Positions 5,089 to 57,481 of a stretch of 64,000 nucleotides of DNA are shown one piece after another; position 1 is the stretch's first letter; each line of letters begins with the position of its first letter. The stretch is from a virus. A program made the translations under genes and the position numbers. Under the pieces are notes generated by a model. That model did no database searches and was not told the origin of the DNA. It saw only the letters and a list, made by a program, of their open reading frames with translations. Where the stretch lies: positions 1 to 64,000 of IMG/VR virus record IMGVR_UViG_3300036766_000670. One strand, given 5' to 3'.

Positions 5089-8000
5089 ATGCCAATCACA
5101 GAAGGTGGACAATGGAGTCCAGATAGAAAAATAATAAGCCCCGGTGTATTCACTCGGGAGATAGACCAGTCTGGTATCGCACAAGGCGTAGCGGATATTG
5201 GAGCAGTCGTAGTTGCACCATTTGCTAAGGGGCCAGGATTTTCGCCAACACTTTGTTCAGATATGACAACTCTGCAACAAGCGTTCGGGGTTCCTGATGG
5301 TAATTTATATGGCCCATATACTGCTCAACAGTATTTACAGGAAAAAGGATTTGTAACGGTTTGCCGTGTTGGTGCTCTTACTGGATATCATCAAAAGTAT
5401 CCGTGGGTCATTTGGGCAGAAGAAGGAAATTGGCTTCGTTATCCTGACGCTGGATGGTTGGATTATACCATCTCCTCAATATCTTCGACTGGTCTTTATT
5501 TCATATCCGCTTCCTCAAATGGAATTACAGCCAATTCGGCTGGATACACAGGTTCTATCACCTTTACCGCTCAACCAGTAACTCTTACATTAATTAATGG
5601 AGTAGCAACAGCTAATCCACTTGGAAGCAATACTGGTTCAATGCTTCTTCATCAACCATATCCTGCAAGTGGTAGCACACTGTACACCGGACAAACAGTT
5701 GCTGGACACATCAATGGTATATTTTCATTTACTGGCTCATTGAATGTTTCCACTGCTTCGGCAACATCTGCTTCGCTAATAAGTCAACTTTTTACTCAAG
5801 GTCTATTCAGTGGAAATATCTATGGTGTCCAATTTACAAGTAGTCAAGTTCCATTTAATACGGCCAATTTCTATGGTAACACTCTTCAAATCAGCCAGTC
5901 TTACGGAATTTGTAATTTACTGGTGTTAAATATTGCTGGATGTCTTACTGGAAGTCTTGGAAAGTATGGACTCGGATTTCTCGCTGGAAGTAATAATACT
6001 TTTGATCCATGCACAGGAATATGGACTGCCAGCGGATCGGCAATTAAAGTGTTGGCAGTTCTTGCCGATACTCAAAATGCCGAGATTGATAGCACTTTGC
6101 ACGCCCCAGGCTTTTTAGGTTCTACTCAAAGCTATAATCCTCTTGTCAGCGGTTCGACCAATATTGGATTAGATTTTGATATCCAGTTGAGCCAATCATT
6201 AAATGGTGCTTATGGTACATATCATTTCTCTCTCAATCCAGAAAGTCCAAAATACATTACTAATGTATTTGGTGAAGATTCGAGAGCGGGCAATCCATCA
6301 ACATACGTTCAAGGCACTAAAATTGAGGCCGCTTATCTCTATAAACTTTTCGAAGATGATATTGCCGTTGTTGCCACAGATCCAACTAAATGGCAAGTTC
6401 ATGGAGATGAAATGCCATCTGGTTCATGGACCGGCGAACCTTTGAATTTCACTGATCAATGGTCTTTGAATTTGCTAAATGGTGATTCTGCATATAGTTT
6501 AACTAATGCTTATACTCCGTGGATTCTTTCTCAACAAATATCTGCTTGGAATGGCGGAAAAGCAACTCGCTTTCCATTGTTCCAGCTTGCAACTTTGTCA
6601 GACGGTACTTACACCAATACTTCCTTCAAAATTGAAATCTCTAATGTAAAATTAGCGGGTACAGTCGCCGGAAGTGATTGGGGTTCATTTACCTTAACGG
6701 TTCGTGCTTATAGTGATACGGATAAAAGACCTCAAATCCTTGAACAATTTAATAACTTATCTCTTGACCCAACTTCTGCAAACTTCATTGCTCGCAGAAT
6801 TGGTGATCGCTATAATTACATCCGTTTTGATGGTAAAATCATTGAATTTGGAACATACACTAATAATAGCAAGAATATTCGTGTTGTAATGTCGCCAAAT
6901 CCATATCCAACAACCGCTGTTCCTTATGGATTTCAAGCTCTCTCTAGCCCAGTTAATGGAGCAATTGGAAATTGGTGCAATCCAATGGCATATACCAAAG
7001 CATCAATTTATAGTTTATTCCCTGGCAAATATACCTCAGGTATTGACTTTGTTGGCGTTCCTCCAGGGGCGGATGCAGAACTTACATCTTTGTATCCAAC
7101 ATCGTCAGTTGGTGAAGGGCACTGGAAAGATAATCTTCAATACTTCGCTCCGTTGCCAGCAGGATCAACGATTGGCAGTAATACGGAATTTGCTCTTGAT
7201 GATGTTATCACTGTAAATGGTGTTGGAACTGGTTCTTTCCTTGATCCATCGTTGAGTGGAAGCATTCCATCAACCTACGACGCAGCTAACGAAACCACCT
7301 ACGTCAAGATGCGTAAGTTCGTCTTTGGATTCCAAGGTGGATTTGATGGACAATCTCCAGCTATTCCTGAAAATGTTGGTGAAGATCTTGAGCCGGGTAA
7401 TACTCAGGGTTTGGATTGTACTAATAGTACAACAGCAGGATCGATTGCCTATAATCAGTGTATCGGTGCTCTTGGAAATGCCGATGAATTTGATATTAAC
7501 TTGATCGTTGTTCCCGGTATTATCTATTCCTTACACTCTTACGTTACTACCCTTGTAGTTGAGATGTGTGAGAATCGTGGAGATTGTTTCTTTATTCTTG
7601 ACATGTATAAAGACAGCGGTAATCCAACCACGGGTCAAATTGATGAAGTAGTCAATCTTGCCAAAGAATTTGATACTAACTATGCAGGTACTTATTATCC
7701 TTGGGTCAAGATATTAGATACGAATATAAATCAAATCGTAACTGTTCCACCATCAGTAGTGCTTCTAGCCGTATATGCTGCTAACGATAAAGTTGCGGCA
7801 GAATGGTATGCGGTAGCCGGTCTCAATCGTGGTGGAATCACTCAGGCAGTACAATTGACTGATCGCACTACTCATACCGAACGTGATACTCTGTATGAAG
7901 GAAAAGTCAATCCTATCTGCACATTCCCAGGACAAGGTATTGTAGTTTGGGGTCAAAAAACTTTACAGAATAAGGATTCTGCAACCAATAGAATCAATGT

Positions 8001-8307
8001 TCGTCGTTTGCTTATTGCGGTTAAAAAGTTCTTCGCCTCGACGGCAAGATACTTGGTGTTCGAACAGAATACAGCAGAAACTCGCAACAAATTCTTGGCG
8101 ATTGTTAATCCATATCTTGAAAGTGTACAGCAACGCAGTGGTTTGTATGCCTTCCAAGTCAAGATGGACGCCAGCAACAATACCCCAGATTTGATTGACC
8201 AGAATATTCTGTACGGCCAAATCTACTTACAGCCAACTAGAACTGCGGAGTTCATTCTCTTGGACTTTTATATCCTCCCGAGTGGGGCGAGTTTTCCTAC
8301 AGCGTAA
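5089..8307 (+). CDS. Contractile tail sheath protein (T4 gp18-like) with large insertion
   Basis: N-terminal SPGVFTREID; C-terminal YYPWV, AGLNRG, NPI, WGQKT, RINVRRL, FEQN and LQPTRTAEFI motifs. Confidence 0.95.
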   Translation: MPITEGGQWSPDRKIISPGVFTREIDQSGIAQGVADIGAVVVAPFAKGPGFSPTLCSDMTTLQQAFGVPDGNLYGPYTAQQYLQEKGFVTVCRVGALTGYHQKYPWVIWAEEGNWLRYPDAGWLDYTISSISSTGLYFISASSNGITANSAGYTGSITFTAQPVTLTLINGVATANPLGSNTGSMLLHQPYPASGSTLYTGQTVAGHINGIFSFTGSLNVSTASATSASLISQLFTQGLFSGNIYGVQFTSSQVPFNTANFYGNTLQISQSYGICNLLVLNIAGCLTGSLGKYGLGFLAGSNNTFDPCTGIWTASGSAIKVLAVLADTQNAEIDSTLHAPGFLGSTQSYNPLVSGSTNIGLDFDIQLSQSLNGAYGTYHFSLNPESPKYITNVFGEDSRAGNPSTYVQGTKIEAAYLYKLFEDDIAVVATDPTKWQVHGDEMPSGSWTGEPLNFTDQWSLNLLNGDSAYSLTNAYTPWILSQQISAWNGGKATRFPLFQLATLSDGTYTNTSFKIEISNVKLAGTVAGSDWGSFTLTVRAYSDTDKRPQILEQFNNLSLDPTSANFIARRIGDRYNYIRFDGKIIEFGTYTNNSKNIRVVMSPNPYPTTAVPYGFQALSSPVNGAIGNWCNPMAYTKASIYSLFPGKYTSGIDFVGVPPGADAELTSLYPTSSVGEGHWKDNLQYFAPLPAGSTIGSNTEFALDDVITVNGVGTGSFLDPSLSGSIPSTYDAANETTYVKMRKFVFGFQGGFDGQSPAIPENVGEDLEPGNTQGLDCTNSTTAGSIAYNQCIGALGNADEFDINLIVVPGIIYSLHSYVTTLVVEMCENRGDCFFILDMYKDSGNPTTGQIDEVVNLAKEFDTNYAGTYYPWVKILDTNINQIVTVPPSVVLLAVYAANDKVAAEWYAVAGLNRGGITQAVQLTDRTTHTERDTLYEGKVNPICTFPGQGIVVWGQKTLQNKDSATNRINVRRLLIAVKKFFASTARYLVFEQNTAETRNKFLAIVNPYLESVQQRSGLYAFQVKMDASNNTPDLIDQNILYGQIYLQPTRTAEFILLDFYILPSGASFPTA

Positions 8308-8419: not shown

Positions 8420-9202
8420 ATGACATTGTACGGAAATCCAGAAAAAATAAAGAAGATATGTGAATGGACAGGGAAAGAGTTTATGGTCGATTGGAAACAT
8501 AGAAATCAACGATTTATAAATATCCGTGCTATGCGTAACTGGAGAATGGCTCAATGTAGAGAAATAGTTAAATGTCTAACTTGTGGGAAATCTTTTGAAC
8601 GATACAAGAATATACTTCATCTGGATACAGGACTTCCTACTCAATATTGCTCTAATGATTGTAATAGAAAATCTATACATAAGAAAGAGTGTCTTAAAAA
8701 ATGGATAAAAAATCATAATCCAATGGATAACCTTTTATCAAGAGAAAAAATAAAACAATCTAAACTTGAACGATATGGAAACTCAACATATAACAACATT
8801 AAAAAATGTAGAAAAACTATGATGGACAAATATGGAGTCCATTGTGTTTTTTACCTTCCTTCTTGTAAGTCTAATGGAAGGAGAATATCAAAGTTTCAGA
8901 AACGAATATATGAAGATCTTCTTCAACAACATCCAGACGCAGAACTTGAAAAGTATCTCCCAGATGTAAAAAAAGCAGTAGATATTTATATTCCTTCTAC
9001 GAAAAAAGTCATAGAATGCTACGGAGATTATTGGCATTGTAATCCCCAAAAATGTTCTCCTACTTATTACAACTATCTCGTCCATCTTACAGCACAAGAG
9101 ATTTGGGAAAAAGATAGACAAAAAGTTGAGTTACTCAAAAGTGGTGGTTATGATGTGGAAATAATATGGGAGAACAGTAAAAAGAGGTTTATAGAATATT
9201 GA
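8420..9202 (+). CDS. Free-standing PD-(D/E)XK (Vsr/DUF559-like) endonuclease, homing-type
   Basis: Zn-finger-like CxxC motifs, KxTxxxKYG repeats, and VDIY...VIECYGDYWH...IIWE. Confidence 0.75.
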   Translation: MTLYGNPEKIKKICEWTGKEFMVDWKHRNQRFINIRAMRNWRMAQCREIVKCLTCGKSFERYKNILHLDTGLPTQYCSNDCNRKSIHKKECLKKWIKNHNPMDNLLSREKIKQSKLERYGNSTYNNIKKCRKTMMDKYGVHCVFYLPSCKSNGRRISKFQKRIYEDLLQQHPDAELEKYLPDVKKAVDIYIPSTKKVIECYGDYWHCNPQKCSPTYYNYLVHLTAQEIWEKDRQKVELLKSGGYDVEIIWENSKKRFIEY

Positions 9203-9239
9203 CGGGGAGCGTTGTTTCTGCTATATTTATACTTGTATT

Positions 9240-11723
9240 ATGGATAAGGAATATCTACAACATATAGCCGGTTCCCTTTACACTAAGGGTCTCGAAGAAC
9301 AAATTGGCGCAAGAGTGAGATCGGGTATGAAAAATATCGGCGCTATGACTGGCAGTCCAATGGAAAGTAGAGAATATACCTATATTCGTTATTCGTTTGA
9401 AAAATTTCTTAAGGGAATAACGCCTGTATTGGATGATTTTGCAGAGAATGTGGATCGACTTCGAAGATTTAAACCATCTCTTACCCCTAATCAAAATAAA
9501 GTGGTGGATTCCATTGTGGATCTCCACAACGTAATTAAGCCACGATACTATGGAGTTACCGTGAATCCACCAGGAAGAGTACAAGATTATCCTCCGGGAA
9601 GATATCCATATATAAAGGGAATTCAAAAACCATTAACTCCTCTTAAAGGAAAACAGCCTACCAAAATAGCTGAAATAATAGATGAAGGAATGCTTGGTCG
9701 ATCTGTAATTATTAATAAAGCCTGGACAAGCCGAAATGCTGGAAAAATCATTGCTGCTTATATAAAAAACATTTACGATAAACAAGTCGCCTTTTATGCA
9801 GAGGTCAAGAAATTAACTGGAAGAACCCCCAACAGAATTCAAACAGTGTTAAGAGATATAAATCGTAAGTGGTCGAATATTTTTGGAAAAGTAAGTGCGA
9901 CGATAAGTACATGGCAGACACAGGCCGAACCTACTGGAAAAACATTCGTTTCTCCTATAGGGGCAAAACCCGAGGGAAAGCCTATTAGTCCAGATCTAAC
10001 TCTTCCGCCAGAAACACCACCAGAAACATCAACCACTCCACCCGCTGTTGCCGCTGTGCTTACTCCAGATAATGGCAAACCCGCTGCCACGGTTCCTGCT
10101 GTTGGTGATGAAATTCCTCCTCCTGCAAGGGGTGATGATTTTGCTTACATAGTAGAAAATGTAGTAAAAATTATTATAGACACTGTTCGAACGGATACTG
10201 AAAGATCAAAAGATTATTTTGAGGCAGAAAGATTACCGAGAACGTGGGAAGAACCTTCTATACATGCTAAAGAAAGAGAGAAAAAAATTCCTACAACAAT
10301 AAAAACGCCTTCTGGCATTACTATTCCTTCAACTGTTCCTATCACCACAACTGCATCAATAATTCCAGATACCATTAAAGAACAGGAAGATGAACCAGAA
10401 AGTAAACCGGAAAAACCAACTGGAAAATTTTTGTACGATTTCAGAAGTGCTTATAGAAAATCAAGAAACTTTGCAATTGAAATGGGGGATCAAAAATCAA
10501 TAACTCTTTCAAGTGGAAAAACAAAAAATATTCGTGTAATTTGGGTTAATAAAGATCAGAAAAATGAAATTCATGTCAAATATCAAGATGCCGCCGAAGC
10601 TGTTGGAGATCAAAAACATGTGTGGAAAGAAATCATATTATTGAATTTCTACGATTATGAAGCCGATAGCAGAAGTGAAGAATGGCAAAAGGATGAAGGA
10701 AACAGATTATTTACTTATATTCATAATGCAAATCCATATGACAATCCATTAGAAGGAGCGAGTAAAGAACGATTGGCAAGACTTCAAAACAAATCTCTAA
10801 TGGACAAATTCAATCGAGCACTTTATGTAGTGATTGATAGGAAAGCAATGGAATTTAGTGCTATGGGGTTAAATATTGGTATTCTTGATGATGAATTGGC
10901 GACTATTTTCCGGTATGACCGTAGTGGAAAAAAACCTCCAATTAATGTTGAAGAACTTTTGAAGTATATTCGTTCTCCAAATGTAGAAACAAGAACTATG
11001 TGGATTGAAAAATTAAAGGATTTAGGATGGTTTGCTCGTAAAGGTTATCCAATTCCAGATCCTAAACAAGATCCTTCTACCTATGAAGGATTGCCAATTC
11101 CGGGTGAGGAAGAACCAATAACCACTCCCGCTCCAGGAACTACAGCCATTCCCACGGGAACTTTGCCAATACCCGATATCGATAAAATTCCCGCCGCAAT
11201 GGAGGCCAGAAGCACTTTACTTAATAAGGGATGGAAGGGAGTTTTTAATGCTATAGGACAAGCAGCTAAAAATCTTGGAGATCGAGCTAAGACAGCTTCT
11301 CCGGATGAATATGTAAAACTTGCCACCGATATATTAAAAGCTTCCAAAGCCGAAAGAGATCCAAAGTATGTATTGGGAATTGAAAATACTAATAATGCAG
11401 TAATGGCTTTGGAAAAATTGGGGTTTAATAAAGTAGTTGCAATAAAAGCTGTAGCAGAAATAGCTAATACAGAGGGAGAAAATCTTACAGATTCCGAATA
11501 TACTGAAAAGGCTCTTAAATTGCTCAAACCCGACAAAAAAACGCTCCCAAGCACATCAGTAGGGGGTCCACCGCCTACATCACCAGTATCTGGAGAACCG
11601 AGTAAATCCGCTGGAGGAGAACCCTCAAAATCACCCGTATCAAAACCGGCAAGCAAAAAAGCTAAAAAGGGAAAGTTGAAAGAAGGTTTCATTAATCCAT
11701 TTCAAGAAACCAACTTTCTCTAA
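9240..11723 (+). CDS. Large Pro/Thr-linker protein with two RuvA C-terminal-like domains; putative head-internal protein
   Basis: NAVMALEKLGFNKVVAIKAVAEI...LTDSEYTEKALKLL plus a preceding weaker copy; TATTTATA upstream. Confidence 0.55.
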   Translation: MDKEYLQHIAGSLYTKGLEEQIGARVRSGMKNIGAMTGSPMESREYTYIRYSFEKFLKGITPVLDDFAENVDRLRRFKPSLTPNQNKVVDSIVDLHNVIKPRYYGVTVNPPGRVQDYPPGRYPYIKGIQKPLTPLKGKQPTKIAEIIDEGMLGRSVIINKAWTSRNAGKIIAAYIKNIYDKQVAFYAEVKKLTGRTPNRIQTVLRDINRKWSNIFGKVSATISTWQTQAEPTGKTFVSPIGAKPEGKPISPDLTLPPETPPETSTTPPAVAAVLTPDNGKPAATVPAVGDEIPPPARGDDFAYIVENVVKIIIDTVRTDTERSKDYFEAERLPRTWEEPSIHAKEREKKIPTTIKTPSGITIPSTVPITTTASIIPDTIKEQEDEPESKPEKPTGKFLYDFRSAYRKSRNFAIEMGDQKSITLSSGKTKNIRVIWVNKDQKNEIHVKYQDAAEAVGDQKHVWKEIILLNFYDYEADSRSEEWQKDEGNRLFTYIHNANPYDNPLEGASKERLARLQNKSLMDKFNRALYVVIDRKAMEFSAMGLNIGILDDELATIFRYDRSGKKPPINVEELLKYIRSPNVETRTMWIEKLKDLGWFARKGYPIPDPKQDPSTYEGLPIPGEEEPITTPAPGTTAIPTGTLPIPDIDKIPAAMEARSTLLNKGWKGVFNAIGQAAKNLGDRAKTASPDEYVKLATDILKASKAERDPKYVLGIENTNNAVMALEKLGFNKVVAIKAVAEIANTEGENLTDSEYTEKALKLLKPDKKTLPSTSVGGPPPTSPVSGEPSKSAGGEPSKSPVSKPASKKAKKGKLKEGFINPFQETNFL

Positions 11724-11814
11724 AATAGTACTTTATACTTCCATTCTTAGTACTTATTATCTCGTAATGAAGTACATTGTACACTAGGATTTTGAGTTGT
11801 CAAGTTTTTATAGC

Positions 11815-12375
11815 ATGAAAAATACAGAATACATTTTATATCTTGATTTAGACGGTGTTCTCGTCAACTTTGAAAGAGGTTTCACAGATCTTTCGGATGG
11901 AATAACCCCCGATGAGATGAAATCCAGATACGGGGAAAAAGTTATGCAAAATCAATACTTAGCCGCCGGATCTTCATTTTGGGCAAACCTTGGATGGATT
12001 GAAGGCGGCGAGGATATTTGGAAAGCTTCAAATGAGTTGTTTGAAAGAGTTTGTATTTTATCTTCTACAGGTACTACTAATCCTATAAAAGGTAAGCCAG
12101 TAATTATGGGTAAAAAACAATGGATAGCTAAAAATATTCCCTCTTTAACCTCGGGTAAAATATTCATAGTATTGGGAAGCCACATGAAAAAAATGCTTGT
12201 CGCTAGAAATAGCATATTAGTTGATGATATGTCGAGCACAGTAGCCGAATGGAATGCGTATGGCGGAATTGGAATACTTCATCATCATAAATACTATCAA
12301 AAAACTATTCAAACATTACAAGATCTCGCTCATCCTCCATCCTTAACTGAACTTGCTAAACGCATTCAGTACTGA
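11815..12375 (+). CDS. HAD-family 5'(3')-nucleotidase-like protein
   Basis: YLDLDGVLVNF motif I, ILSS, GKKQW, ILVDD. ATG at 11815 preferred over TTG at 11797. Confidence 0.85.
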   Translation: MKNTEYILYLDLDGVLVNFERGFTDLSDGITPDEMKSRYGEKVMQNQYLAAGSSFWANLGWIEGGEDIWKASNELFERVCILSSTGTTNPIKGKPVIMGKKQWIAKNIPSLTSGKIFIVLGSHMKKMLVARNSILVDDMSSTVAEWNAYGGIGILHHHKYYQKTIQTLQDLAHPPSLTELAKRIQY

Positions 12376-12393
12376 TTACTGATATTTATAGTC

Positions 12394-15300
12394 ATGAATC
12401 AAGATTTGAAAAAACTCATAAATGAAACCGTAAAAAACTTTTTCGACGAAAATGAAGTGGATGTTTACGGTTCGGGAGAACTTCCTCCGAGCGGAGAAGA
12501 AAAATACGAAAAACAGGAACCCGGAGGTACTATGAGTGCGACAAATTTGACACCGTTGATATACGAAACTAATTTCCGGATTTACAATGAAACGCTTTGT
12601 CCTGATTTATGGGATGCATATGATCATTTAGATGGTCATATAAGAGTAAATCTCTTGCGTATGGCATATGATTTCTATGAAAAGACAGATTTCAAAGCTC
12701 CAATTGTAGATGTCTATTTGATGGGATCTATTGCTAATTATAATTGGACTCCCGAAAGTGATGTTGATATTCATATAATCATTGACCATGATAAACTTCA
12801 AATGCCATCTGATACTATCTTAAGCGCAATCAAAGCTGCATGTTCTTTATGGAATAACGAGCATCATGTAGCGGTTAAGAGGCATAAGGTTGAGATGAAT
12901 ATTCAAAATATGAAAGAAGTTAAACCTCATGTCACCGGCATTTATTCTCTTGTTAAAGATCAATGGGTAAGAAAACCCGTTCTTCAATCTCTTTCTTTTG
13001 ATAAAACCTTTATTCAATCTATGTACAAAGGAATGAAAGAGTATCTCAAGTCTGCTATCAATAGCGGAAATCGACATGCTATGAAGGCGGTAAAAAAATA
13101 TATAGATGCTTTTCGTCAGTATGGACTTGATACCCGTGGTGAATTGAGTGTTGAAAATATCGTATTCAAAATTCTTCGTGCCAAAGGTTTGATTGAAATG
13201 TTGAAAACTGCTATAACAATGACATATGATAAAGAGATGACAGTAAGAGAGGCCGAAAAATTGAATGAAAGTAAAGAACCAGAATCTGCCATTGAAGATT
13301 TGATGGAAGAGCACGGTGTAGTGAGCCGTTGTTTGCTTATTTATGAAGAATTGATTCGTAAATTGGAGACAGAGAAGGAAATGTCTTTTGACATTGTTCA
13401 TGATATAGCCGAAGTAATCCGTCATCACGTAGAAGATCACCACGAAAAAGTAGAGGAGAAGTATGTCTTTGCGCTTTTCAAAGGAAAAGATAAACTGGGA
13501 AAAGTAGTAAAAATTCTTACAGAACAGCACAAAGCGGGCAGGAAATTAACTGGAAAAATACTTAATCTTTCTTCTAAATCGTACTCAAAAGAAACTCAAA
13601 ATCAGTTGTTTCAAGAGTGTAAAAAATTTGTCCATATGTATGGCCCGCATAAAGCATGGGAAGATACGGTAGTATTTCCCGCCGTTCGTAAAGCTTTGAC
13701 GGACAACGAGTTAGAAAAATTCAATGAAAAAATGGAAGAAGCCGAAAAAGAAGGCGATCCGAAAAAATTCATACAGGAAGTTGAAAAAATAGAAAAGAAA
13801 CTCGGTATTTACAAGATATGTTGTTTTACTCCTGAAAAGGACAGAAAGACAATGTTGGAGGTTAGACAACAAGACATTAAATCCCATCTTCCTTCACCAG
13901 AAAACATCAAGCTTATTGATGGTCAAAAGCTGGATCTTAGCCGATTAACCTTAGATCATTTGAAGGCATTACGGGCTAAAGCGGTAAGATTTTGGAAGGC
14001 TGCAAGCAAGAAAAAAGATCATGAAGAAACTCTTTGGGCACTGGCAGAGTTTGAAAGATATAACTTCGAAATAAAAAGGAGAATGAGATACATAAATGCT
14101 CCTCTCATAACCGAAGAATCAAAAAAATTTCCACCTTTTACTCTTGTTTTCGACAGTTCAGATGTAGCAAAAGGTGCTGTAAAGATTATGTTGGGTAATG
14201 AATGGTTTGGTAATATCTATAAACCTCTCGAAGGATGGGGTGAATATACTGGAAAGTGGATTTTCAATGCTGCCAGCAAAGAAGCAATGAAAATGAAGTT
14301 TCCAGCTAAGGGATATAATAGTCCGGGAGAATTGCTTCGAGATTTAAAAAAATGGTATAGTCAACGATTTATAACCGAGAAACAAGAAGTTTTTGACATT
14401 AAAGGTCCGGATGAATTGTCTCCTAGAAATCAAGTTGAGCTTGATCAGTTAGTTCGTAATTCTGAAAACATTATATCCGGTAAAGAGCTTTATTATATTT
14501 ATTTAGTCAATGATCATGTTGCGGGTGCTCTTTATACATCTTATCGTGATCGAGTATATAGTTTTAATGTTGTTGTTAGTAAAGAATATCGTCAGAAAGG
14601 TATTGGAGTAAGAATGATAAGGGATGGATTAGATGAATATTTCAACAATATTCTGGAAACCGATCCGGATGCGAAACTGGAACTTAATATTGTAAATCCT
14701 TCTATAATAGATTATCTTAAACGAATAGGGATGGAAGTGGAAAAGAGTGTTGGAGGACGTGTTATAATGTTTTATTCAAAAGGAAAAGAAAGTTCTATAG
14801 ATGAAAATGGGGGAGGGGGAATAGGATATTTTAGTAAAGAACTTGAAGCAGATATTCAACATCTAATTACAACCAGTGAGGATAGTATAGAGTCTGGTGA
14901 GCCGGTTCTTACTCGTGCTCAAGCAATTCGGTACTTAATGCAGGACATGGATGATCCTGGGCATTATTCACATGAGCATAGAAGGGAACTTCAAAATTTT
15001 GGTGTTAAGATCGGAATTTTTGAACCTTGTACAAGAGAAGAATTGGATAATATTGTAGTTATAGGTGGAAGAGGGCGAAAATATGACTTTAAACGAGGAA
15101 ATTTATACTATAGATTTAATTCTTGGAAACCTTTAATAGGGCACGAAGATCCAGTAGATGAAAATAATGAAGATTTAAAAAGTGATTTTGATTTGGCTGA
15201 ACAAGGAGATACTGTTTCTGTTGTAAGAAGAGCGATAGAGAAGCTGGGAGGAATGGAAAATTTCAAAGCGTGGTTTATGGGATGGATTTCAAAAGAAAAA

Positions 15301-15819
15301 ATTCCATATAGACAAATAGATTCTTCGGGACAATCGCATACTGTAGAATTTTTTGCGAGAAAATATTTAAAAGGCGAGATAGATTTGCGTCGTATTAGTG
15401 AAGGTTATGGAGCGGGTATTCCAGGCACAGATAAGCGTTTAGGTATTCCAGGTGAAAGATGGAGAATTAGAAGCAAAGACGCTCCAAAAACTCCAAAGAT
15501 GCCAAGCGACGAAGAGTTATCAATAACTATAGATCTCGATGAAATTGTTGATAGTACATTGGAATTACTATTCGAATCTCCTAATATGGAAACTCTTAAG
15601 AAAAACAGAAAAACTCTTTCTGATGAAGAAAGAAGAATAGTTATGGATTCGGGAGCGGTATGGCATCATAGTCCAAATGGAAAAGAAACTCCTGGGGTTT
15701 GGAAATCTATAGTCAAAGGAAAAACATGGTACGTTTGTAATACTCACAGAGCTTATCAATGTAAGCCAACTCTAAGGGGAGCCATAAAAGCTTTCGAATT
15801 TATAGAGACAACCTCGTAA
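12394..15819 (+). CDS. Multidomain protein: Pol-beta nucleotidyltransferase + hemerythrin + GNAT + unknown modules
   Basis: GSIANYNWTPESDVDIH (GS..DxD); EEH..HHEKVEE..EQH..HKAWED (hemerythrin); VVVSKEYRQKGIG (GNAT motif A). Confidence 0.85.
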   Translation: MNQDLKKLINETVKNFFDENEVDVYGSGELPPSGEEKYEKQEPGGTMSATNLTPLIYETNFRIYNETLCPDLWDAYDHLDGHIRVNLLRMAYDFYEKTDFKAPIVDVYLMGSIANYNWTPESDVDIHIIIDHDKLQMPSDTILSAIKAACSLWNNEHHVAVKRHKVEMNIQNMKEVKPHVTGIYSLVKDQWVRKPVLQSLSFDKTFIQSMYKGMKEYLKSAINSGNRHAMKAVKKYIDAFRQYGLDTRGELSVENIVFKILRAKGLIEMLKTAITMTYDKEMTVREAEKLNESKEPESAIEDLMEEHGVVSRCLLIYEELIRKLETEKEMSFDIVHDIAEVIRHHVEDHHEKVEEKYVFALFKGKDKLGKVVKILTEQHKAGRKLTGKILNLSSKSYSKETQNQLFQECKKFVHMYGPHKAWEDTVVFPAVRKALTDNELEKFNEKMEEAEKEGDPKKFIQEVEKIEKKLGIYKICCFTPEKDRKTMLEVRQQDIKSHLPSPENIKLIDGQKLDLSRLTLDHLKALRAKAVRFWKAASKKKDHEETLWALAEFERYNFEIKRRMRYINAPLITEESKKFPPFTLVFDSSDVAKGAVKIMLGNEWFGNIYKPLEGWGEYTGKWIFNAASKEAMKMKFPAKGYNSPGELLRDLKKWYSQRFITEKQEVFDIKGPDELSPRNQVELDQLVRNSENIISGKELYYIYLVNDHVAGALYTSYRDRVYSFNVVVSKEYRQKGIGVRMIRDGLDEYFNNILETDPDAKLELNIVNPSIIDYLKRIGMEVEKSVGGRVIMFYSKGKESSIDENGGGGIGYFSKELEADIQHLITTSEDSIESGEPVLTRAQAIRYLMQDMDDPGHYSHEHRRELQNFGVKIGIFEPCTREELDNIVVIGGRGRKYDFKRGNLYYRFNSWKPLIGHEDPVDENNEDLKSDFDLAEQGDTVSVVRRAIEKLGGMENFKAWFMGWISKEKIPYRQIDSSGQSHTVEFFARKYLKGEIDLRRISEGYGAGIPGTDKRLGIPGERWRIRSKDAPKTPKMPSDEELSITIDLDEIVDSTLELLFESPNMETLKKNRKTLSDEERRIVMDSGAVWHHSPNGKETPGVWKSIVKGKTWYVCNTHRAYQCKPTLRGAIKAFEFIETTS

Positions 15820-15832
15820 TCAAAAGAAAAAT

Positions 15833-16679
15833 ATGATTACATTGAAATCATTATTGTGCGAGCAAGTGAAGAAAATATCTCTTCAAAAGGCTGTTGATAA
15901 TAAACTTTTTGGTCCTGTTTATCACGGAACAAACCAAGAAGCCCTTTCTAAAATAGATAAAGAGGGTTTCAAAGTGATTATGGGACTTCATGGTACATCG
16001 GGTATGTCACATGGATATGAATATGAACCATATGGATATTTTACTGATGTTCCTCCCCCAATTCATCATCTTGGGTTCGGCGTGTATTTTACTACTGTCA
16101 AAGCTATTGCTAAAAGATTTGCTGGTGGTACAGCAAAAGGAATGAAAGCATATTTCTTGGATATTCCAAAGAAGGAAACAATAAATTTTGCTTCACCGAG
16201 AAAAATGATGAAATGGTGGATTGAAAATGGATATGATCCGGAATTGGCTAAACGTGGCGAAGGTGGTAGGTACATGGCAACGGCAAAAATGACCGAACAA
16301 TTGAAATCCAAATACGAGGGGGTGTGGTTCAAAGGAAAAGGAATACACAGACTTTTGGATGGTGATCAAGTAGTTGTATTTGATCCTAAAGACATTTATG
16401 AAATAGATTTGTCTTTATCGAAGGAATTTGACCTTGGTGCTAAAGTTAAAGCCAAAATTGACATAAAATATACTGATAAGGAAGGAAATGTATATGGAAG
16501 TGTTGTTCCTATTGGAACAACAGGGATTATAGTTAAAAGATACGATGTCAAAAAAAATGGCGAAAGAATATCCTCTCTATTGGGCAAAAGATGCCGAGCG
16601 ATATGCATTTGATGTAAAGTTCAAAGTTGGTGGTGAAAGACAAGTAAAGGATACTTGGGTGGAACCTTTGAATTTATAA
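15833..16679 (+). CDS. ADP-ribosyltransferase-like protein with SH3-like C-terminus (frameshift at A8, 16550-16557)
   Basis: PVYHGT...GF...LGFGVYFT...A..FA and QVVVFDP. The frame-0 stop is at 16612; the +1 frame continues MAKEYPLYW...FDVKFKVGGERQVKDTWVEPLNL to 16679. Confidence 0.65.
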
Positions 16680-16752
16680 CTTTTTATTTTTCTCGCTTAT
16701 TTCTCCAGGAGGCATATATTTATAATCAGAAGCATAAATAAGGATTCTATCT

Positions 16753-17244
16753 ATGGCAGACTTACTAACAAACAACGAGATGTTCTTCACGATTTGGGAA
16801 CCCAAAACGAAGAATCGTTTCCTCATGTATATTGACGGCGTTCCAACGTACCTCATTCGTAAAACCGACCGTCCAAAATGGACCCAAGATCGTCAAACGA
16901 TTGATTATATCAACTTGCAATGGTTCTACAAGGGTAAGACCAAGTGGCAGGAAATTGATATTGAACTTTACGATCCCGTTGTTCCTTCCGCCGCCCAAAC
17001 AGTTTTTGAATGGTTCCGTTTGTCGCATGAATCTGTGACTGGGCGTGATGGATATCAAGATTTCTATAAAAAGGAAGTTACTATTGATATCCTCGGTCCT
17101 GTCGGTGATAAAGTTGAAGAATGGACTCTGAAAGGTGCTTTTCCAACTTCTTTTGATGGTGGGACAATGGAATGGGTCAATGATGCTGAACCAGTACTAG
17201 TTACTCTTAGGCTATCATACGATTATGCGATCCTCCAATATTGA
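16753..17244 (+). CDS. Tail tube protein (T4 gp19-like)
   Basis: EPKTKNRF, YKGKTKWQ.I.I.LYDP, YKKEVTI.ILGP, EEWTLKGAFP, L.LSYDY. Confidence 0.92.
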   Translation: MADLLTNNEMFFTIWEPKTKNRFLMYIDGVPTYLIRKTDRPKWTQDRQTIDYINLQWFYKGKTKWQEIDIELYDPVVPSAAQTVFEWFRLSHESVTGRDGYQDFYKKEVTIDILGPVGDKVEEWTLKGAFPTSFDGGTMEWVNDAEPVLVTLRLSYDYAILQY

Positions 17245-17901: not shown

Positions 17902-17931
17902 TATTTATAAAGTGAAAAGGATAAATCATAT

Positions 17932-18612
17932 ATGAAGCAAAAACTTTTGGAATATCTCGTTAGGCAATGTGTACGAGAAGTATTGGCCCAAGTGAGAGAG
18001 CAGGATGACGAAACTAAAGGTGCCCCATCACCACCAGCGGCGGGCCTGGGAACTGCCGATACTCCGGCGGTTCCAAAACCGAAAGATACTACGCCAGAAG
18101 AACCATCTGAACCAGAAACTCCACCCACCAGCTTGAAAGGAGCGATATTTGTTAATCCAAGAGATAAATCAAAACTATCTCCAATCGGGCCTCTTCCTTT
18201 TAATATAAGTGATGCCGCTTTGGAAAGAAAACTTTATGATATATCAACAAGTTACATAGGACCGGAGGTAAAAGTTTCTCTTTCTGCATTTCGAATGGTT
18301 AAAGATGCCATTAGAAATCCAGGCTCAACTGTTTACTTATACTTTGGGAAATTTGACCCAGAATCAGAGGAGATATTTTTGATGGCAGATAAAAGTTTGC
18401 AAGCAGCCAAAGATGGTACTGTTCCTCCAGCAGAACTTACTAGAACTCCTGTTTCTACTGCTTCTCCAAGTCAGTTTGATCCAATTACAGCAGAACCGGA
18501 ACAATATGCTCAACAAATGACTAGTGGTGGTATGTCTCCAAGACGTGGGATTGATGAACGAATAGTCAAAGCCATAAAGAAAATAGTCAGAGAAGTATTG
18601 ACACGAAAATAA
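17932..18612 (+). CDS. Hypothetical, putative head-internal protein
   Basis: Leader LLEYLVRQCVREVL...VREQ, with a similar C-terminal IKKIVREVL. Confidence 0.55.
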   Translation: MKQKLLEYLVRQCVREVLAQVREQDDETKGAPSPPAAGLGTADTPAVPKPKDTTPEEPSEPETPPTSLKGAIFVNPRDKSKLSPIGPLPFNISDAALERKLYDISTSYIGPEVKVSLSAFRMVKDAIRNPGSTVYLYFGKFDPESEEIFLMADKSLQAAKDGTVPPAELTRTPVSTASPSQFDPITAEPEQYAQQMTSGGMSPRRGIDERIVKAIKKIVREVLTRK

Positions 18613-18613
18613 G

Positions 18614-18979
18614 ATGAACCAAAAAAATCTTCAAGAACTCATCCGTTGTATAACTCGGGAAATATTGGAGGAGTATATGGATACTCCTACTAAAATTGGT
18701 AGTATTTCTGATAAAAGCGATGAAGATGATAAGGATATTTCTGCCATGACCGCTGTTGAAAAAGCAAAGAAAAGGCGTGAGGAAGAAAAAGCGAGACAGG
18801 ATCAAATTAGAGGGGGTAAGCTGGAATTGAATGCTACAAAAAAACAAACCGATTATTTTGGGCAGCAACTTAAACAGAATAGATTAAAACAGGCTGCTCA
18901 GAGAAAAGTTCTTCAAAATCTTCAAGCAGATAAAGACATTAGTGTTGGTGGTGCAGGTAGTATTGGTGTCAAAATATAA
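18614..18979 (+). CDS. Hypothetical coiled-coil, putative head-internal protein
   Basis: Leader LQELIRCITREILEE. Confidence 0.55.
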   Translation: MNQKNLQELIRCITREILEEYMDTPTKIGSISDKSDEDDKDISAMTAVEKAKKRREEEKARQDQIRGGKLELNATKKQTDYFGQQLKQNRLKQAAQRKVLQNLQADKDISVGGAGSIGVKI

Positions 18980-20450: not shown

Positions 20451-20536
20451 GTAGCCAATATACACCCTTTTTTTATTTTGTCAAGGGGAAAAATCGTTTG
20501 CAGGCCATATTTATACTCATGGAAAGCATTTGATTT

Positions 20537-23014: not shown

Positions 23015-23027
23015 GATATTTATAAAT

Positions 23028-29619: not shown

Positions 29620-30369
29620 ATGAGTAACGTTGTTGACCGAGTATTTGCCGAAGTCTGCCTAGACGAAAGAGTTTCAGACGGCATATTCCAAATGGAAAAT
29701 GAAGAGCATATGAATGCTCTTCGTGACTATTTTGTTAAAAAAGGCATTCCTCAGGAAGCCGCCATCCAGGTGACTAATCGCATGGTTGAAGGCAAGTATC
29801 CAGAACGACAAGCTTATCGAACGGAAGATGGTATTTTAGTAACATGGCCTTCTCCACAACATAAGAAAAGGGCTATGGCTGAACATCCAGGTAAGTATGT
29901 TGAAGAAAACCCATTCCCCAAAAGACCATCGGAAAAAGAGCCTGAGAAAAGGGAACCTATCAGACGTGAACCGCCTCCTAAAGAAGAACCGAAAGATAAA
30001 GATAAAGATGAGGATGATAAATCTTTGCCAAGATCTGGTGGTAGCGTATTTGGTGGTGAAAAAATAACTCAAGGTGATAAAAAACTGGAAATAGAACCGC
30101 CTCGGGGCGAGGAAAAGCCAGAACCACCAGCCTCGGCTCCTCCAGTACCCACTATTGCACCAAGAACTCCAGAAAGAATTGCGGCAGAAAAAGAGGTTGT
30201 AAAGCAAATTCTCGGTACTGATAACAACGCACTCGCAAATATTACTGGCCCGCTGAAAGAAGAAAATAAAGAATTACTGCGTTATCAATTAAACGAATTA
30301 TATAAAAAAGCGGACGCATTGGGGTTTAAGGAAGCTGTCACATTTTTGACTCCTTATGTAAAGCCTTAA
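29620..30369 (+). CDS. Hypothetical Pro/charged protein
   Basis: TATTTATA at 29601 and AAAGGA before the ATG at 29620. Confidence 0.6.
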   Translation: MSNVVDRVFAEVCLDERVSDGIFQMENEEHMNALRDYFVKKGIPQEAAIQVTNRMVEGKYPERQAYRTEDGILVTWPSPQHKKRAMAEHPGKYVEENPFPKRPSEKEPEKREPIRREPPPKEEPKDKDKDEDDKSLPRSGGSVFGGEKITQGDKKLEIEPPRGEEKPEPPASAPPVPTIAPRTPERIAAEKEVVKQILGTDNNALANITGPLKEENKELLRYQLNELYKKADALGFKEAVTFLTPYVKP

Positions 30370-44311: not shown

Positions 44312-45046
44312 ATGAAACCAGAGACATTTAGACAACTTATCCGAAGAGTCCTCAACGAGGAAGTTGAAAAAACCAGCGTTACCGGCAAGACTACATTTAA
44401 CCGTGTGCCAGAAATTGTACATGGTGAGGATTACAAAGAGATCATGCCTAATAAGCGTGCTGATATGAGCAAGGATAATTTACTCGCTGATATGGACAAA
44501 GTAGTTAAGGCAATTGATCCCGAGTACATAGTTGTATGGGACGATCACGATGATATTTCAATTTCTGCAAGAGATTTATTCCGTATTCGAATCATTCCTA
44601 AATGGGAAGGTAATTTTTGCATTGAAGCAATGACACGCAATGAAGATCGCATTTATATCACTGGCCAGACATGGGAACAAGTTAAACAGTTTGTAAAAGT
44701 TAATCTAAAAGACTCTAAAACCAAGGTTGATGTGGCTTATGATAAATCAAAGAAGAATGTAACGGCTGATGAAACTTCGGCTCCAGACAAAGGGATGCCT
44801 CAGAAGGATAAGCCAAATATTTTGCCACTTACTAATGAACCTCCGAAAGAAACCAAAAACAAAGAGAGAGATTACACCGAAAAACAAGTTAAGAAGGAGA
44901 AAGATTTACCAGAAAAACCAATGAAAGAGGTTGAAGATTTCGAGAGACAAAAAGAACATAGAGTAATGAGTCCGCTTAAAATTCGTAGAGAAAGAACCAA
45001 ATATCCGGTCAAAAAGCCGAATACTACTTTAACAGTTAAGTTGTAA
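44312..45046 (+). CDS. Hypothetical, putative head-internal protein
   Basis: Leader FRQLIRRVLNEE; TATTTATA upstream. Confidence 0.55.
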   Translation: MKPETFRQLIRRVLNEEVEKTSVTGKTTFNRVPEIVHGEDYKEIMPNKRADMSKDNLLADMDKVVKAIDPEYIVVWDDHDDISISARDLFRIRIIPKWEGNFCIEAMTRNEDRIYITGQTWEQVKQFVKVNLKDSKTKVDVAYDKSKKNVTADETSAPDKGMPQKDKPNILPLTNEPPKETKNKERDYTEKQVKKEKDLPEKPMKEVEDFERQKEHRVMSPLKIRRERTKYPVKKPNTTLTVKL

Positions 45047-56370: not shown

Positions 56371-56855
56371 TTAATTAGATTTATGTAATGAGGTTTTTCA
56401 TCATGTAAAAAAAGTAGAAATTCGTTTGTTAGATCTAATACCGTTGGCGGTTTTGATGAAATGATGCTTTTGAATTGTTTCATAATTGCCATATCTTCTT
56501 CGGCCCAGTGCGTAAAACCTAAATATCCATAATCTTTATCTCTTCCTCCACCAACCAGTTTTATAGGAAGTTTTTCATATTCCATAAAATTTCTTATGAA
56601 CTCGAATGGACGATAAAGCAGAAAAGATGTAATGGAATAGCAGATAGGGGTCTTTCCTTCCATTGCTAAACCAGCGGCAACTCCAATCATAAATTGTTCA
56701 GCCGAACCCACATTGAAAAATCTATCAAAAAATTCTTTACGAATATCGTCCCATAGACCATATCCCATATCAGCGGTTATAAGGATGATGTTTTTTCCAC
56801 GATCCTTACGCATTTCTGTTAAAAGCATTTTGGCAAAATCTCGTCTCATTTGCAT
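56367..56855 (-). CDS. Transketolase-like, pyrimidine-binding subunit
   Basis: ITADMGY, FFNVGSAEQ..IGVAAGLA.EG, RPFEFIR, GFTH. Confidence 0.88.
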   Translation of the reverse strand: MQMRRDFAKMLLTEMRKDRGKNIILITADMGYGLWDDIRKEFFDRFFNVGSAEQFMIGVAAGLAMEGKTPICYSITSFLLYRPFEFIRNFMEYEKLPIKLVGGGRDKDYGYLGFTHWAEEDMAIMKQFKSIISSKPPTVLDLTNEFLLFLHDEKPHYINLIK

Positions 56856-57481
56856 ATCTCCATTGCTATATCATAATCTTCTTTGGACATTATTTTATAA
56901 TGGGCGTTCAAATCATGAAGGAAGGGGAAGTGTTCGGAAGTGCAGTTTATAATTGAAACTTGAGCTTTTTGAGTAAATCCCGATATTTGACGATATAATT
57001 TATATGGTGGAATTGGATCATAAGCACCATAGCCATTAGACATAATATACACTTGAATGTTGGGAACATCATTCATGTCTAAAAATCGTAATGCTTCCCA
57101 AAATACACCCTCGGCTGTTTCTCCATCACTAACCATTACGTGAATTCGACGATTTTTATTAGTCAATGCTCGGCCAACGGCGGCAGCTATTCCCATTCCT
57201 AAACTGCCAGTAGAGCAGTAAATGTGATTTTCCTCGTCTAAGTGAGGATGTCCACCATGCTTTTTGAAAAGTTCCTCGGCATCATGACCATAGTATTTTT
57301 CAAGTACAACATATAAAGCGAGGGCAGCATGTCCATTAGAAAGAATGAAAATGTCATCGAGTTTCTTTTTCTTAAAAATCCAATCAATCGTATCTACACA
57401 TGAAAAATAGCTTCCCAGATGAGCAAGTTTATGTTTATAAGCAATCTCAATTATTCGTTTCTTCAAGTCTTTATTTACCAT
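56846..57481 (-). CDS. Transketolase-like, N-terminal TPP-binding subunit
   Basis: AHLGS, FILSNGHA, GHP, TGSLGMG, SDGE..EG..WEA...N. Confidence 0.9.
   Translation of the reverse strand: MVNKDLKKRIIEIAYKHKLAHLGSYFSCVDTIDWIFKKKKLDDIFILSNGHAALALYVVLEKYYGHDAEELFKKHGGHPHLDEENHIYCSTGSLGMGIAAAVGRALTNKNRRIHVMVSDGETAEGVFWEALRFLDMNDVPNIQVYIMSNGYGAYDPIPPYKLYRQISGFTQKAQVSIINCTSEHFPFLHDLNAHYKIMSKEDYDIAMEICK

Follow-up and report, generated by a model that had tools for sequence, protein, structure and literature searches.

What is made by a gene that strings about nine unrelated protein modules together in a single open reading frame (ORF), amid the tail genes of a phage? We address this question for the ORF at 12394-15819 (+ strand), hereafter the target. 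It lies in the window, by which we mean the whole 64,000-nucleotide stretch that was analysed: positions 1 to 64,000 of the 78.6-kb viral record IMGVR_UViG_3300036766_000670, which is judged 27% complete. The gene content of this record shows that the source phage is T4-like, and since the 78.6-kb record is only 27% complete, the whole phage is probably a jumbo phage of roughly 290 kb. We show that, across the protein family to which the target belongs, module borders carry a conserved hydrophobic-x-Glu triplet. The T4 prohead protease, gp21, cuts after L/I-X-E (PMC9026906). We consider it fairly probable that the target is a head-packaged polyprotein of a T4-like jumbo phage, cut by a gp21-type protease.

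The target consists of about nine unrelated modules in one late-context ORF, which runs uninterrupted for 1141 amino acids (aa). A first-pass annotation, made from the sequence of the window, had proposed that unrelated modules are joined here, and three of them indeed score above curated Pfam cut-offs: a nucleotidyltransferase (NTase; NTP_transf_2, residues 99-156), a hemerythrin (Hemerythrin/HHE, 299-430) and a GNAT acetyltransferase (Acetyltransf_1, 678-752). PHROG 36119 spans residues 64-282. Beside the three Pfam domains, six further modules were delimited by homology. The ORF is thus divided as follows:

12394..15819, + strand: target ORF, an NTase-headed polyvalent protein, 1141 aa plus stop
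12394..12426, + strand: leader MNQDLKKLINE, residues 1-11, ends I-N-E; candidate capsid-targeting propeptide
12427..12567, + strand: N0, acidic, residues 12-58, ends LIYE; in 24 homologs
12568..13251, + strand: NTase, residues 59-286, modelled Pol-beta fold plus C-terminal four-helix bundle, ends TVRE
13252..13269, + strand: spacer AEKLNE, residues 287-292; second site, read from sequence
13270..13860, + strand: hemerythrin-like HHE di-iron module plus linker KDRKTMLE, residues 293-489
13861..14115, + strand: module C, basic, helical, residues 490-574, ends LITE; in 105/210 family proteins
14116..14379, + strand: module D, basic, residues 575-662, ends FITE; in 27 homologs
14380..14805, + strand: GNAT acetyltransferase, residues 663-804, ends SIDE
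14806..15162, + strand: module F, orphan, residues 805-923, Gly-rich linker at its start, ends PVDE
15163..15402, + strand: module G, residues 924-1003, ends RISE; homologs in P0093 and P0021 only
15403..15576, + strand: module H, residues 1004-1061, GYGAGIPG followed by a basic stretch, ends LLFE; in 106/210 proteins
15577..15816, + strand: module I, C-terminal (SP-x-M-x-TLK ... WHH ... NTHR), residues 1062-1141

Every triplet named by the first-pass annotation ends at exactly the nucleotide it gave. These sites are E286 (TVRE) and E292 (KLNE, 13269), E489 (TMLE, 13860), E574 (LITE, 14115), E662 (FITE, 14379), E804 (SIDE, 14805), E923 (PVDE, 15162), E1003 (RISE, 15402) and E1061 (LLFE, 15576). 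In charge, modules C, D and I are basic, and N0, GNAT, F, G and H are acidic. Of the 39 proteins with module I, most have it at the C-terminus; small stand-alone proteins of 163 and 196 aa carry it too. Pfam found no family for modules C, D, F, G, H or I. Sequence searches of the PDB with modules C-G and H-I returned nothing meaningful, the ESM Atlas returned no usable match to modules H-I, and module F had no homolog in any search, including one for shorter homologs of residues 805-1003. A whole-protein AlphaFold2 model made without an alignment had a mean predicted local distance difference test score (pLDDT) of 36, too low for placing domain borders.

Module borders across the family carry a conserved hydrophobic-x-Glu triplet. 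Within the target, a site occurs every 35-50 residues, so any border has one nearby and a single sequence cannot decide whether borders are special. We cut the query at the sites of the first-pass annotation, projected the module ends onto homologs and counted unique flanking sequences; these homolog counts include related sequences, hence non-independent events, which lessens their weight. The triplet background in family proteins is 2.06% per position. We find the terminal Glu of the triplet (P1) before module H in 86/88 unique flanks, regardless of the upstream module, and before module C in 48/50, while L-x-E stands before module I in 32/37. When something precedes the NTase, P1 Glu lies at that border in 59 of the 68 unique flanks. 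It also follows the NTase (162/183) and module D (12/13), and module C ends in IN-x-P-hydrophobic-x-E in 78/99. The rarer modules behave similarly: the flanks of module G in P0093 and P0021 are V-I-E / I-T-E and V-S-E / V-D-E, and the GNAT module ends V-D-E and I-K-E in P0091 and P0182. For module F, support comes from the outer side only, through homologs of the neighbouring GNAT and G. P3 is mostly V, I, L, M or F, positions P2, P4 and P5 are unconstrained, and what lies upstream is often an unrelated module. Triplets no more frequent at junctions than background had been set beforehand as grounds for abandoning the polyprotein proposal; across the family they are clearly above background. 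Homologous NTase genes also have swapped modules with the same junctions.

Two further comparisons place the triplet at the junction itself. It follows the NTase in 168/195 unique cases with at least 30 residues following, versus 17/48 in which the NTase is terminal (Fisher p = 7e-12, a value inflated by relatedness and by groups that are partly different subfamilies, with the direction clear). Many terminal-NTase proteins stop before the triplet position. Since the Glu is mostly present when a module follows the NTase and mostly absent when the NTase is terminal, it is a property of the junction and not of the NTase fold. BLAST alignment breakpoints, which were defined without use of the motif, recur at query positions 286/287, 486/489, 571/574, 653/662, 1001 and 1057/1062. 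We show that 53% of 427 breakpoints lie no more than 3 residues from a triplet bond, versus 18% +/- 9% for randomly placed sites.

The N-terminus of the target resembles a T4-type propeptide. T4 internal proteins have capsid-targeting leaders of 10-19 residues, which are removed at a gp21 site (PMC9026906; PMC3012670). The target leader, with 11 residues and an I-N-E end, lies within the range of about 7-19 residues for propeptides of this type. Close homologs begin MDKDLKKLI-x-E, and other subfamilies have different leaders with the same triplet end. We compared 97 unique N-termini that extend upstream of the NTase: in 65 a triplet ends at residue 6-14, as against a chance expectation of ~17%. 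The leader of the probable ADP-ribosyltransferase (ART) encoded next to the target is MITLKSLLCE, and the corresponding protein of locus L003 begins MIKLKTILNE. A protein in scaffold position, adjoining the protease of one relative, starts MIRLKNLIKIQE and resembles both the target and the ART leaders.

Another kind of leader is found elsewhere in the window. Proteins encoded at 17932-18612, 18614-18979, 44312-45046 and 29620-30369 have amphipathic leaders with hydrophobic-x-Glu (MKQKLLEYLVRQCVRE, MNQKNLQELIRCITREILEE, MKPETFRQLIRRVLNE and MSNVVDRVFAE, respectively). Their likeness extends to the longer leaders found in a different NTase subfamily and to the C-termini of relatives' prohead proteases (..LIRDILGEIK), and all of these may be core-binding helices.

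A protease of the expected type is encoded by relatives of the source phage. We searched five NTase-bearing viral records for an S77 protease. The two relatives that are 100% complete (one of 369 kb, with terminal repeats, and one of 296 kb) encode it, as does one that is 74% complete, and it is absent from the two fragments searched (28% and 49% complete). In the 369-kb genome, the island corresponding to that of the target runs from an 827-aa-like protein through the deoxyribonucleotidase and an NTase polyprotein of 1133 aa (containing modules C and H) to the tail tube; its tail tube and baseplate hub are 72% and 60% identical to those of the window. In the three relatives with a protease, residues 58-61 of the gp23-type capsid protein read L-I-D-E, L-L-N-E or L-I-E-E and directly precede the conserved mature part. 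T4 gp23 loses a 65-residue propeptide (PMC9026906), and in our reading the triplet of the relatives would match this propeptide border. The first-pass link to a gp21-type protease accords with the L/I-X-E rule (PMC9026906) and with the S77 proteases of the complete relatives.

The protease of the 369-kb relative (L083:784-1860) is itself unusual, being 359 aa long versus about 205 aa in the others. An insertion of ~150 residues follows ELDHPDS, begins with Cys and ends ..GN before Ser. It matches Pfam Intein_splicing at E = 1.4e-5, below the cut-off, and is probably a mini-intein in the head protease.

Several points weigh against a cleaved and packaged target. The triplet is not enriched within the target itself: [ILV]-x-E occurs 23 times versus 23.7 +/- 4.1 in shuffles, and [IL]-x-E 20 times versus 17.1. 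Val is the commonest P3 residue in the family, whereas T4 sites call for Leu or Ile there. Of the 183 NTase ends, 14 have Asp in place of Glu, for example in L004, and T4 would not cut these; in T4, Asp at the last site position blocks cutting and leaves targeting intact (PMC9026906). Numerous family members start directly at the NTase and have no leader. A triplet lies at residues 7-14 in 20/90 ORFs of the record, near the chance level, and packaged proteins are therefore not recognisable by the triplet alone. One gene of a sugar-biosynthesis operon (56846-57481, - strand) starts MVNKDLKKRIIE, a close look-alike of the target leader; this likeness most likely arose by chance, and it cautions that a leader by itself is no basis for calling a protein packaged. 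No head genes (capsid, protease) occur in the window or its 78.6-kb record, and the Peptidase_S77 profile (PF03420) has no match in that 27%-complete record. Because the record is a fragment lacking a protease or capsid gene, we infer the protease from relatives. The stand-alone NTases of Maribacter phage Molly and Synechococcus phage S-CRM01 lie among early or nucleotide-metabolism genes, so the packaged reading is to be limited to the island subfamily. Finally, cleavage, packaging and injection are predictions made from sequence.

Some of these points suit an uncut multidomain (polyvalent) protein, packaged or not, in which the modules work while joined and the triplet is a convention of linkers or domain ends rather than a protease site. 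The target shows no overall enrichment of the motif, the Asp variants at NTase ends carry the very residue that blocks T4 cutting (PMC9026906), and the N4 virion RNA polymerase, a polyvalent protein, is packaged uncut (PMC5512222). We nevertheless find an uncut protein unlikely. Unrelated folds would not be expected to end in one shared triplet. P1 and P3 are conserved, and P2, P4 and P5 vary freely. The loss of Glu when no module follows the NTase, and the presence of the same triplet at the capsid-protein propeptide border in relatives, also argue for a protease site.

The target lies in a variable island among structural genes, between the tail sheath and the tail tube:

5089-8307, + strand: tail sheath
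8420-9202: homing or HNH-type endonuclease, next gene after the sheath and upstream limit of the variable island
9240-11723: 827-aa protein; RuvA_C-like (UBA-type) stretch and long linkers rich in Pro, Thr and Ser
11797..12375, + strand: 5'-3' deoxyribonucleotidase (HAD family, PHROG 2643), adjoining the target upstream
12383..12390, + strand: TATTTATA, 3 nt before the target ATG; candidate late promoter
15833..16612, + strand: probable ART, Pfam ART-PolyVal 29.4 bits, under the 31.2 cut-off
16753-17244, + strand: gp19-type tail tube

Beyond the tail tube, the + strand encodes endonuclease VII and then a T4-type baseplate hub, and farther along the window are UvsX, a gp32-like single-stranded DNA-binding protein, DnaB helicase and ribonucleotide reductase. 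The order sheath-island-tube, with the target between sheath and tube, is conserved in five loci (the 369-kb relative, L001-L003 and L010). The 827-aa protein is kept between sheath and deoxyribonucleotidase in relatives, with 27-28% identity in L002 and L003. The record originates from sediment metagenomes. Two sediment metagenome runs contain the exact target protein, as does a second contig of 147 kb, and no RNA datasets are listed among the sequencing runs that contain it.

A candidate late-promoter motif accompanies this region. TATTTATA is the reverse complement of the T4 late -10 element, and TATAAATA together with its reverse complement has 23 matches on both strands of the window, versus 7.7 expected; none of 100 shuffles reaches 23. 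Matches of TATTTATA span 1578-54235 and include those at 1578-1585, 9224-9231, 12383-12390, 16717-16724, 17902-17909, 20508-20515 and 23017-23024. On the + strand, TATTTATA stands 3-40 nt before the tail assembly gene, the gene for the 827-aa protein, the target, the tube gene and several other genes of the structural region, and upstream of no replication gene in the window. The ART gene lacks a copy of its own and begins after a 13-nt gap, so it is probably co-transcribed with the target. At three genes, TATTTATA ends just 3-4 nt before the ATG, which would imply almost leaderless mRNAs.

This setting bears on two other explanations. One is that the protein is cut by another Glu-specific protease in the infected cell and yields a cytoplasmic, unpackaged set of nucleotide enzymes. 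Fusion of the NTase to a deoxyribonucleotidase, or its position beside one, would suit such a set, as would the NUDIX domain fused to the NTase in P0084 or adjacent to it in Maribacter phage Molly, the early-gene contexts of stand-alone homologs and the many leaderless members. Set against this are the structural-gene position of the target and its late-type motif. Moreover, we found a peptidase domain neither in the target nor in its neighbours: by eye we find no zincin HExxH in the target, Pfam reports no peptidase domain there, and the target ORF has no Pfam match to MuF, zincin-like peptidase, ArdC-N, DdrB-ParB or ART-PolyVal. The sole known protease of such specificity in these phages is the prohead protease, which is active inside proheads (PMC9026906). 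We regard cytoplasmic processing as quite improbable. The second explanation, which we hold to be very improbable, is that the target is a cargo or component of the tail, much as contractile injection systems load effectors into their tube. The position between sheath and tube, conserved in five loci, would fit this idea. The phage tube lumen, however, is normally filled by the tape measure protein. Furthermore, the junction triplet is the signal of the head protease, and the T4-like packaged enzyme Alt is encoded near baseplate genes yet resides in the head (PMC5512222).

For a head-packaged polyprotein, the favoured explanation, the following course of events can be proposed. The leader would carry the precursor into the prohead scaffolding core, where the prohead protease would cut after Glu 11, 58, 286/292, 489, 574, 662, 804, 923, 1003 and 1061. 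These cuts are predicted to release the NTase (27 kDa), the hemerythrin (23 kDa) and the GNAT (16 kDa), along with six smaller pieces (6-14 kDa). Pieces retained in the head would enter the host with the DNA and could act before phage genes are expressed. By analogy with T4 core peptides, small fragments might instead exit the head once cut. Insertion between two sites would bring in new cargo, for instance the mature portion of a periplasmic hemerythrin from bacteria.

The family to which the target belongs is large and extensively shuffled. One protein search returned 88 family proteins of 630-1750 aa, and a search of the whole 1.8-billion-protein library returned 4,996 representative clusters at E <= 0.001. 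A megablast search of the target gene against 50,697 phage records gave no match, and tblastn against known phages matched the NTase part only, at 28-36% identity. A pattern scan of viral contigs built from a single protein found no relative, and an alignment-based scan located the NTase at 586 loci. Identity across the family is 40-70% over the NTase head (residues 59-286), and the remainder is shuffled: we count 78 module orders among 159 family proteins of at least 450 aa. Segments matching no query module make up 55% of family residues, and Pfam names almost none of them.

The same modules occur fused in some genomes and split in others. Separate genes in relatives include a leader-bearing N0 (L003 and L001), the ART (the window and L001) and a piece running from C to H (L002). 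A probable ART-PolyVal domain also lies inside the NTase polyprotein L003/P0020, at 28.8 bits, below the 31.2 cut-off. The deoxyribonucleotidase is a separate gene in the window and is fused to the NTase elsewhere through G-[IV]-K-E. Cutting at the seams would make the products of the fused and split forms identical. In the close relative L002 (9653-11633), the NTase ORF ends within module C, and a second ORF takes up from C and continues through to H; this break may be genuine, or it may reflect a frameshift or an error of assembly.

Against this background of exchange, the order NTase ... C ... (D) ... H ... I is kept, with C, D, H and I in fixed order in most members. Since these four modules recur in fixed order, they may form a packaging backbone rather than act as effectors. 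The first-pass estimate of about eight effectors is therefore an overstatement, and its overall interpretation holds in part: the junction signal stands and the effector count does not. The proposed capture of cassettes is also supported, given the 78 orders among 159 proteins, the occurrence of modules as neighbouring genes in relatives, and a hemerythrin that matches the mature part alone of its bacterial relatives and has an added linker behind it.

A broader version of the packaged-polyprotein reading is conceivable, and we advance it tentatively, as something short of an even prospect: T4-like jumbo phages may use prohead-protease sites as universal cassette borders, in a plug-in system of protein delivery with a backbone of leader, NTase, C, D, H and I. 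Any coding segment captured between two triplets would then be freed in the head and injected. If true, this would explain why more than half of the family residues are lineage-specific and without a Pfam name, and how a periplasmic hemerythrin came to be recruited.

The NTase is modelled with a Pol-beta superfamily fold. An AlphaFold2 model from a 41-sequence alignment (pLDDT 93) has a minimal Pol-beta core and a four-helix bundle, and G-S, D-x-D and a later Glu are invariant across the 41 sequences. Compared with solved MNT/HI0073, TENT5, AadA and CdnD structures, the model reaches Z 6-7 at best and over the core only; Foldseek TM-scores are below 0.31, and the best PDB profile search gives E = 0.004. 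These relatives are too distant to place the NTase in one of their subfamilies. The repeated association of the NTase with deoxyribonucleotidase and NUDIX points to nucleotide chemistry. A 387-aa fusion of deoxyribonucleotidase and NTase through G-[IV]-K-E was seen in ~25 viral contigs of about 100-134 kb, including loci L018, L013, L029, L032, L035 and L036. The NTase is C-terminal in these fusions, and its tail lacks the Glu.

The hemerythrin has the borders of an inserted cassette. The Pfam match (PF01814) scores 33.3 bits, versus a cut-off of 25.3, and covers profile positions 2-126 of 127. The candidate HHE ligands H307, H350-x3-E354, H379 and H419-x3-E423 are present, so that the four-position pattern is intact. 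Its nearest relatives are bacterial proteins of ~230 aa with Tat (twin-arginine)-type signal peptides, 42-44% identical, one of which is annotated in a deltaproteobacterial genome. Homology covers the mature part of these relatives only and stops at ~481, and the 8 residues KDRKTMLE, with their M-L-E end, precede module C. These borders fit a cassette placed between two sites. The target is the sole hemerythrin carrier within the family set examined. The GNAT module scores 21.8 bits, versus a cut-off of 20.7, and the acetyl-CoA motif R-Q-K-G-I-G is present.

If the junctions are cut, one gene would deliver several ready-made enzymes to the host at infection, and the family would represent a large, mostly unexplored pool of early-acting phage proteins. 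A di-iron hemerythrin would be an unusual cargo for a sediment phage and hints that the chemistry of early infection involves oxygen, nitric oxide or iron. If exchangeable cassettes are indeed bounded by the three-residue signal of a head protease acting in trans, this would extend the ideas of T4 internal proteins and of polyvalent proteins. In the laboratory, the triplet rule could also be used to direct proteins of choice into phage heads.

How does the target compare with known systems? Its closest counterparts are the T4 proteins packaged in the head. Like IPI, IPII, IPIII and Alt, the target has a short leader ending in hydrophobic-x-Glu (PMC9026906, PMC3012670, PMC5512222). The internal proteins of T-even phages are a diverse anti-defence set with the leader alone in common (PMC9026906; PMC3012670), and the target would share with T4 internal proteins a diverse, fast-changing anti-host cargo; it likewise has a probable ADP-ribosyltransferase partner and a location among tail genes. 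T4 cargoes, however, are separate small genes with one leader each. Alt is trimmed at its two ends only, and it is the T4 core proteins that are cut at several sites (PMC9026906; PMC3012670). The target, in contrast, joins about nine modules in one ORF, each border bearing a site; Val predominates at P3, and many family members lack a leader. The core proteins gp22, gp67 and gp68 resemble the target in having several L/I-X-E sites cut by gp21 in one chain (PMC9026906), but they serve as scaffold, most of their fragments leave the head, and they do not string enzymes together.

The target also shares features with the polyvalent proteins that phages and conjugative elements encode (Iyer, Burroughs, Anand, de Souza and Aravind 2017, PMC5512222), namely unrelated conflict-type domains (NTase, GNAT and probable ART), a late-gene product and domain shuffling. 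Polyvalent proteins are predicted to travel with the DNA (PMC5512222), and we propose the same for the target. Their release is predicted to depend on embedded peptidases, either zincin-like or C-terminal and assemblin-like (PMC5512222), which the target family lacks. PMC5512222 describes neither conserved inter-domain cleavage sites nor linkers, and it makes no mention of a hemerythrin, which the target family adds. The Pol-beta NTases described there are a firmicute, ArdC-linked group, whereas the target family has neither MuF nor ArdC.

A third comparison is with the inner-body and ejection proteins of phiKZ, 201phi2-1 and SPN3US, which, as proposed for the target, are head-internal proteins of large phages cut after Glu (PMC10052503, PMC9026906). 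The giant-phage proteases gp175 (phiKZ) and gp245 (SPN3US) are distant relatives of gp21; they recognise a three-residue motif and cut long propeptides at several sites. Both work in vitro as recombinant enzymes. Unlike in the target, the SPN3US motif is A-X-E, and cutting there removes almost exclusively N-terminal propeptides from single proteins, not enzyme modules. Our literature searches found no published description of a polyprotein such as the target. A predicted site for a trans-acting protease at every module border of one ORF sets the target apart from these known systems.

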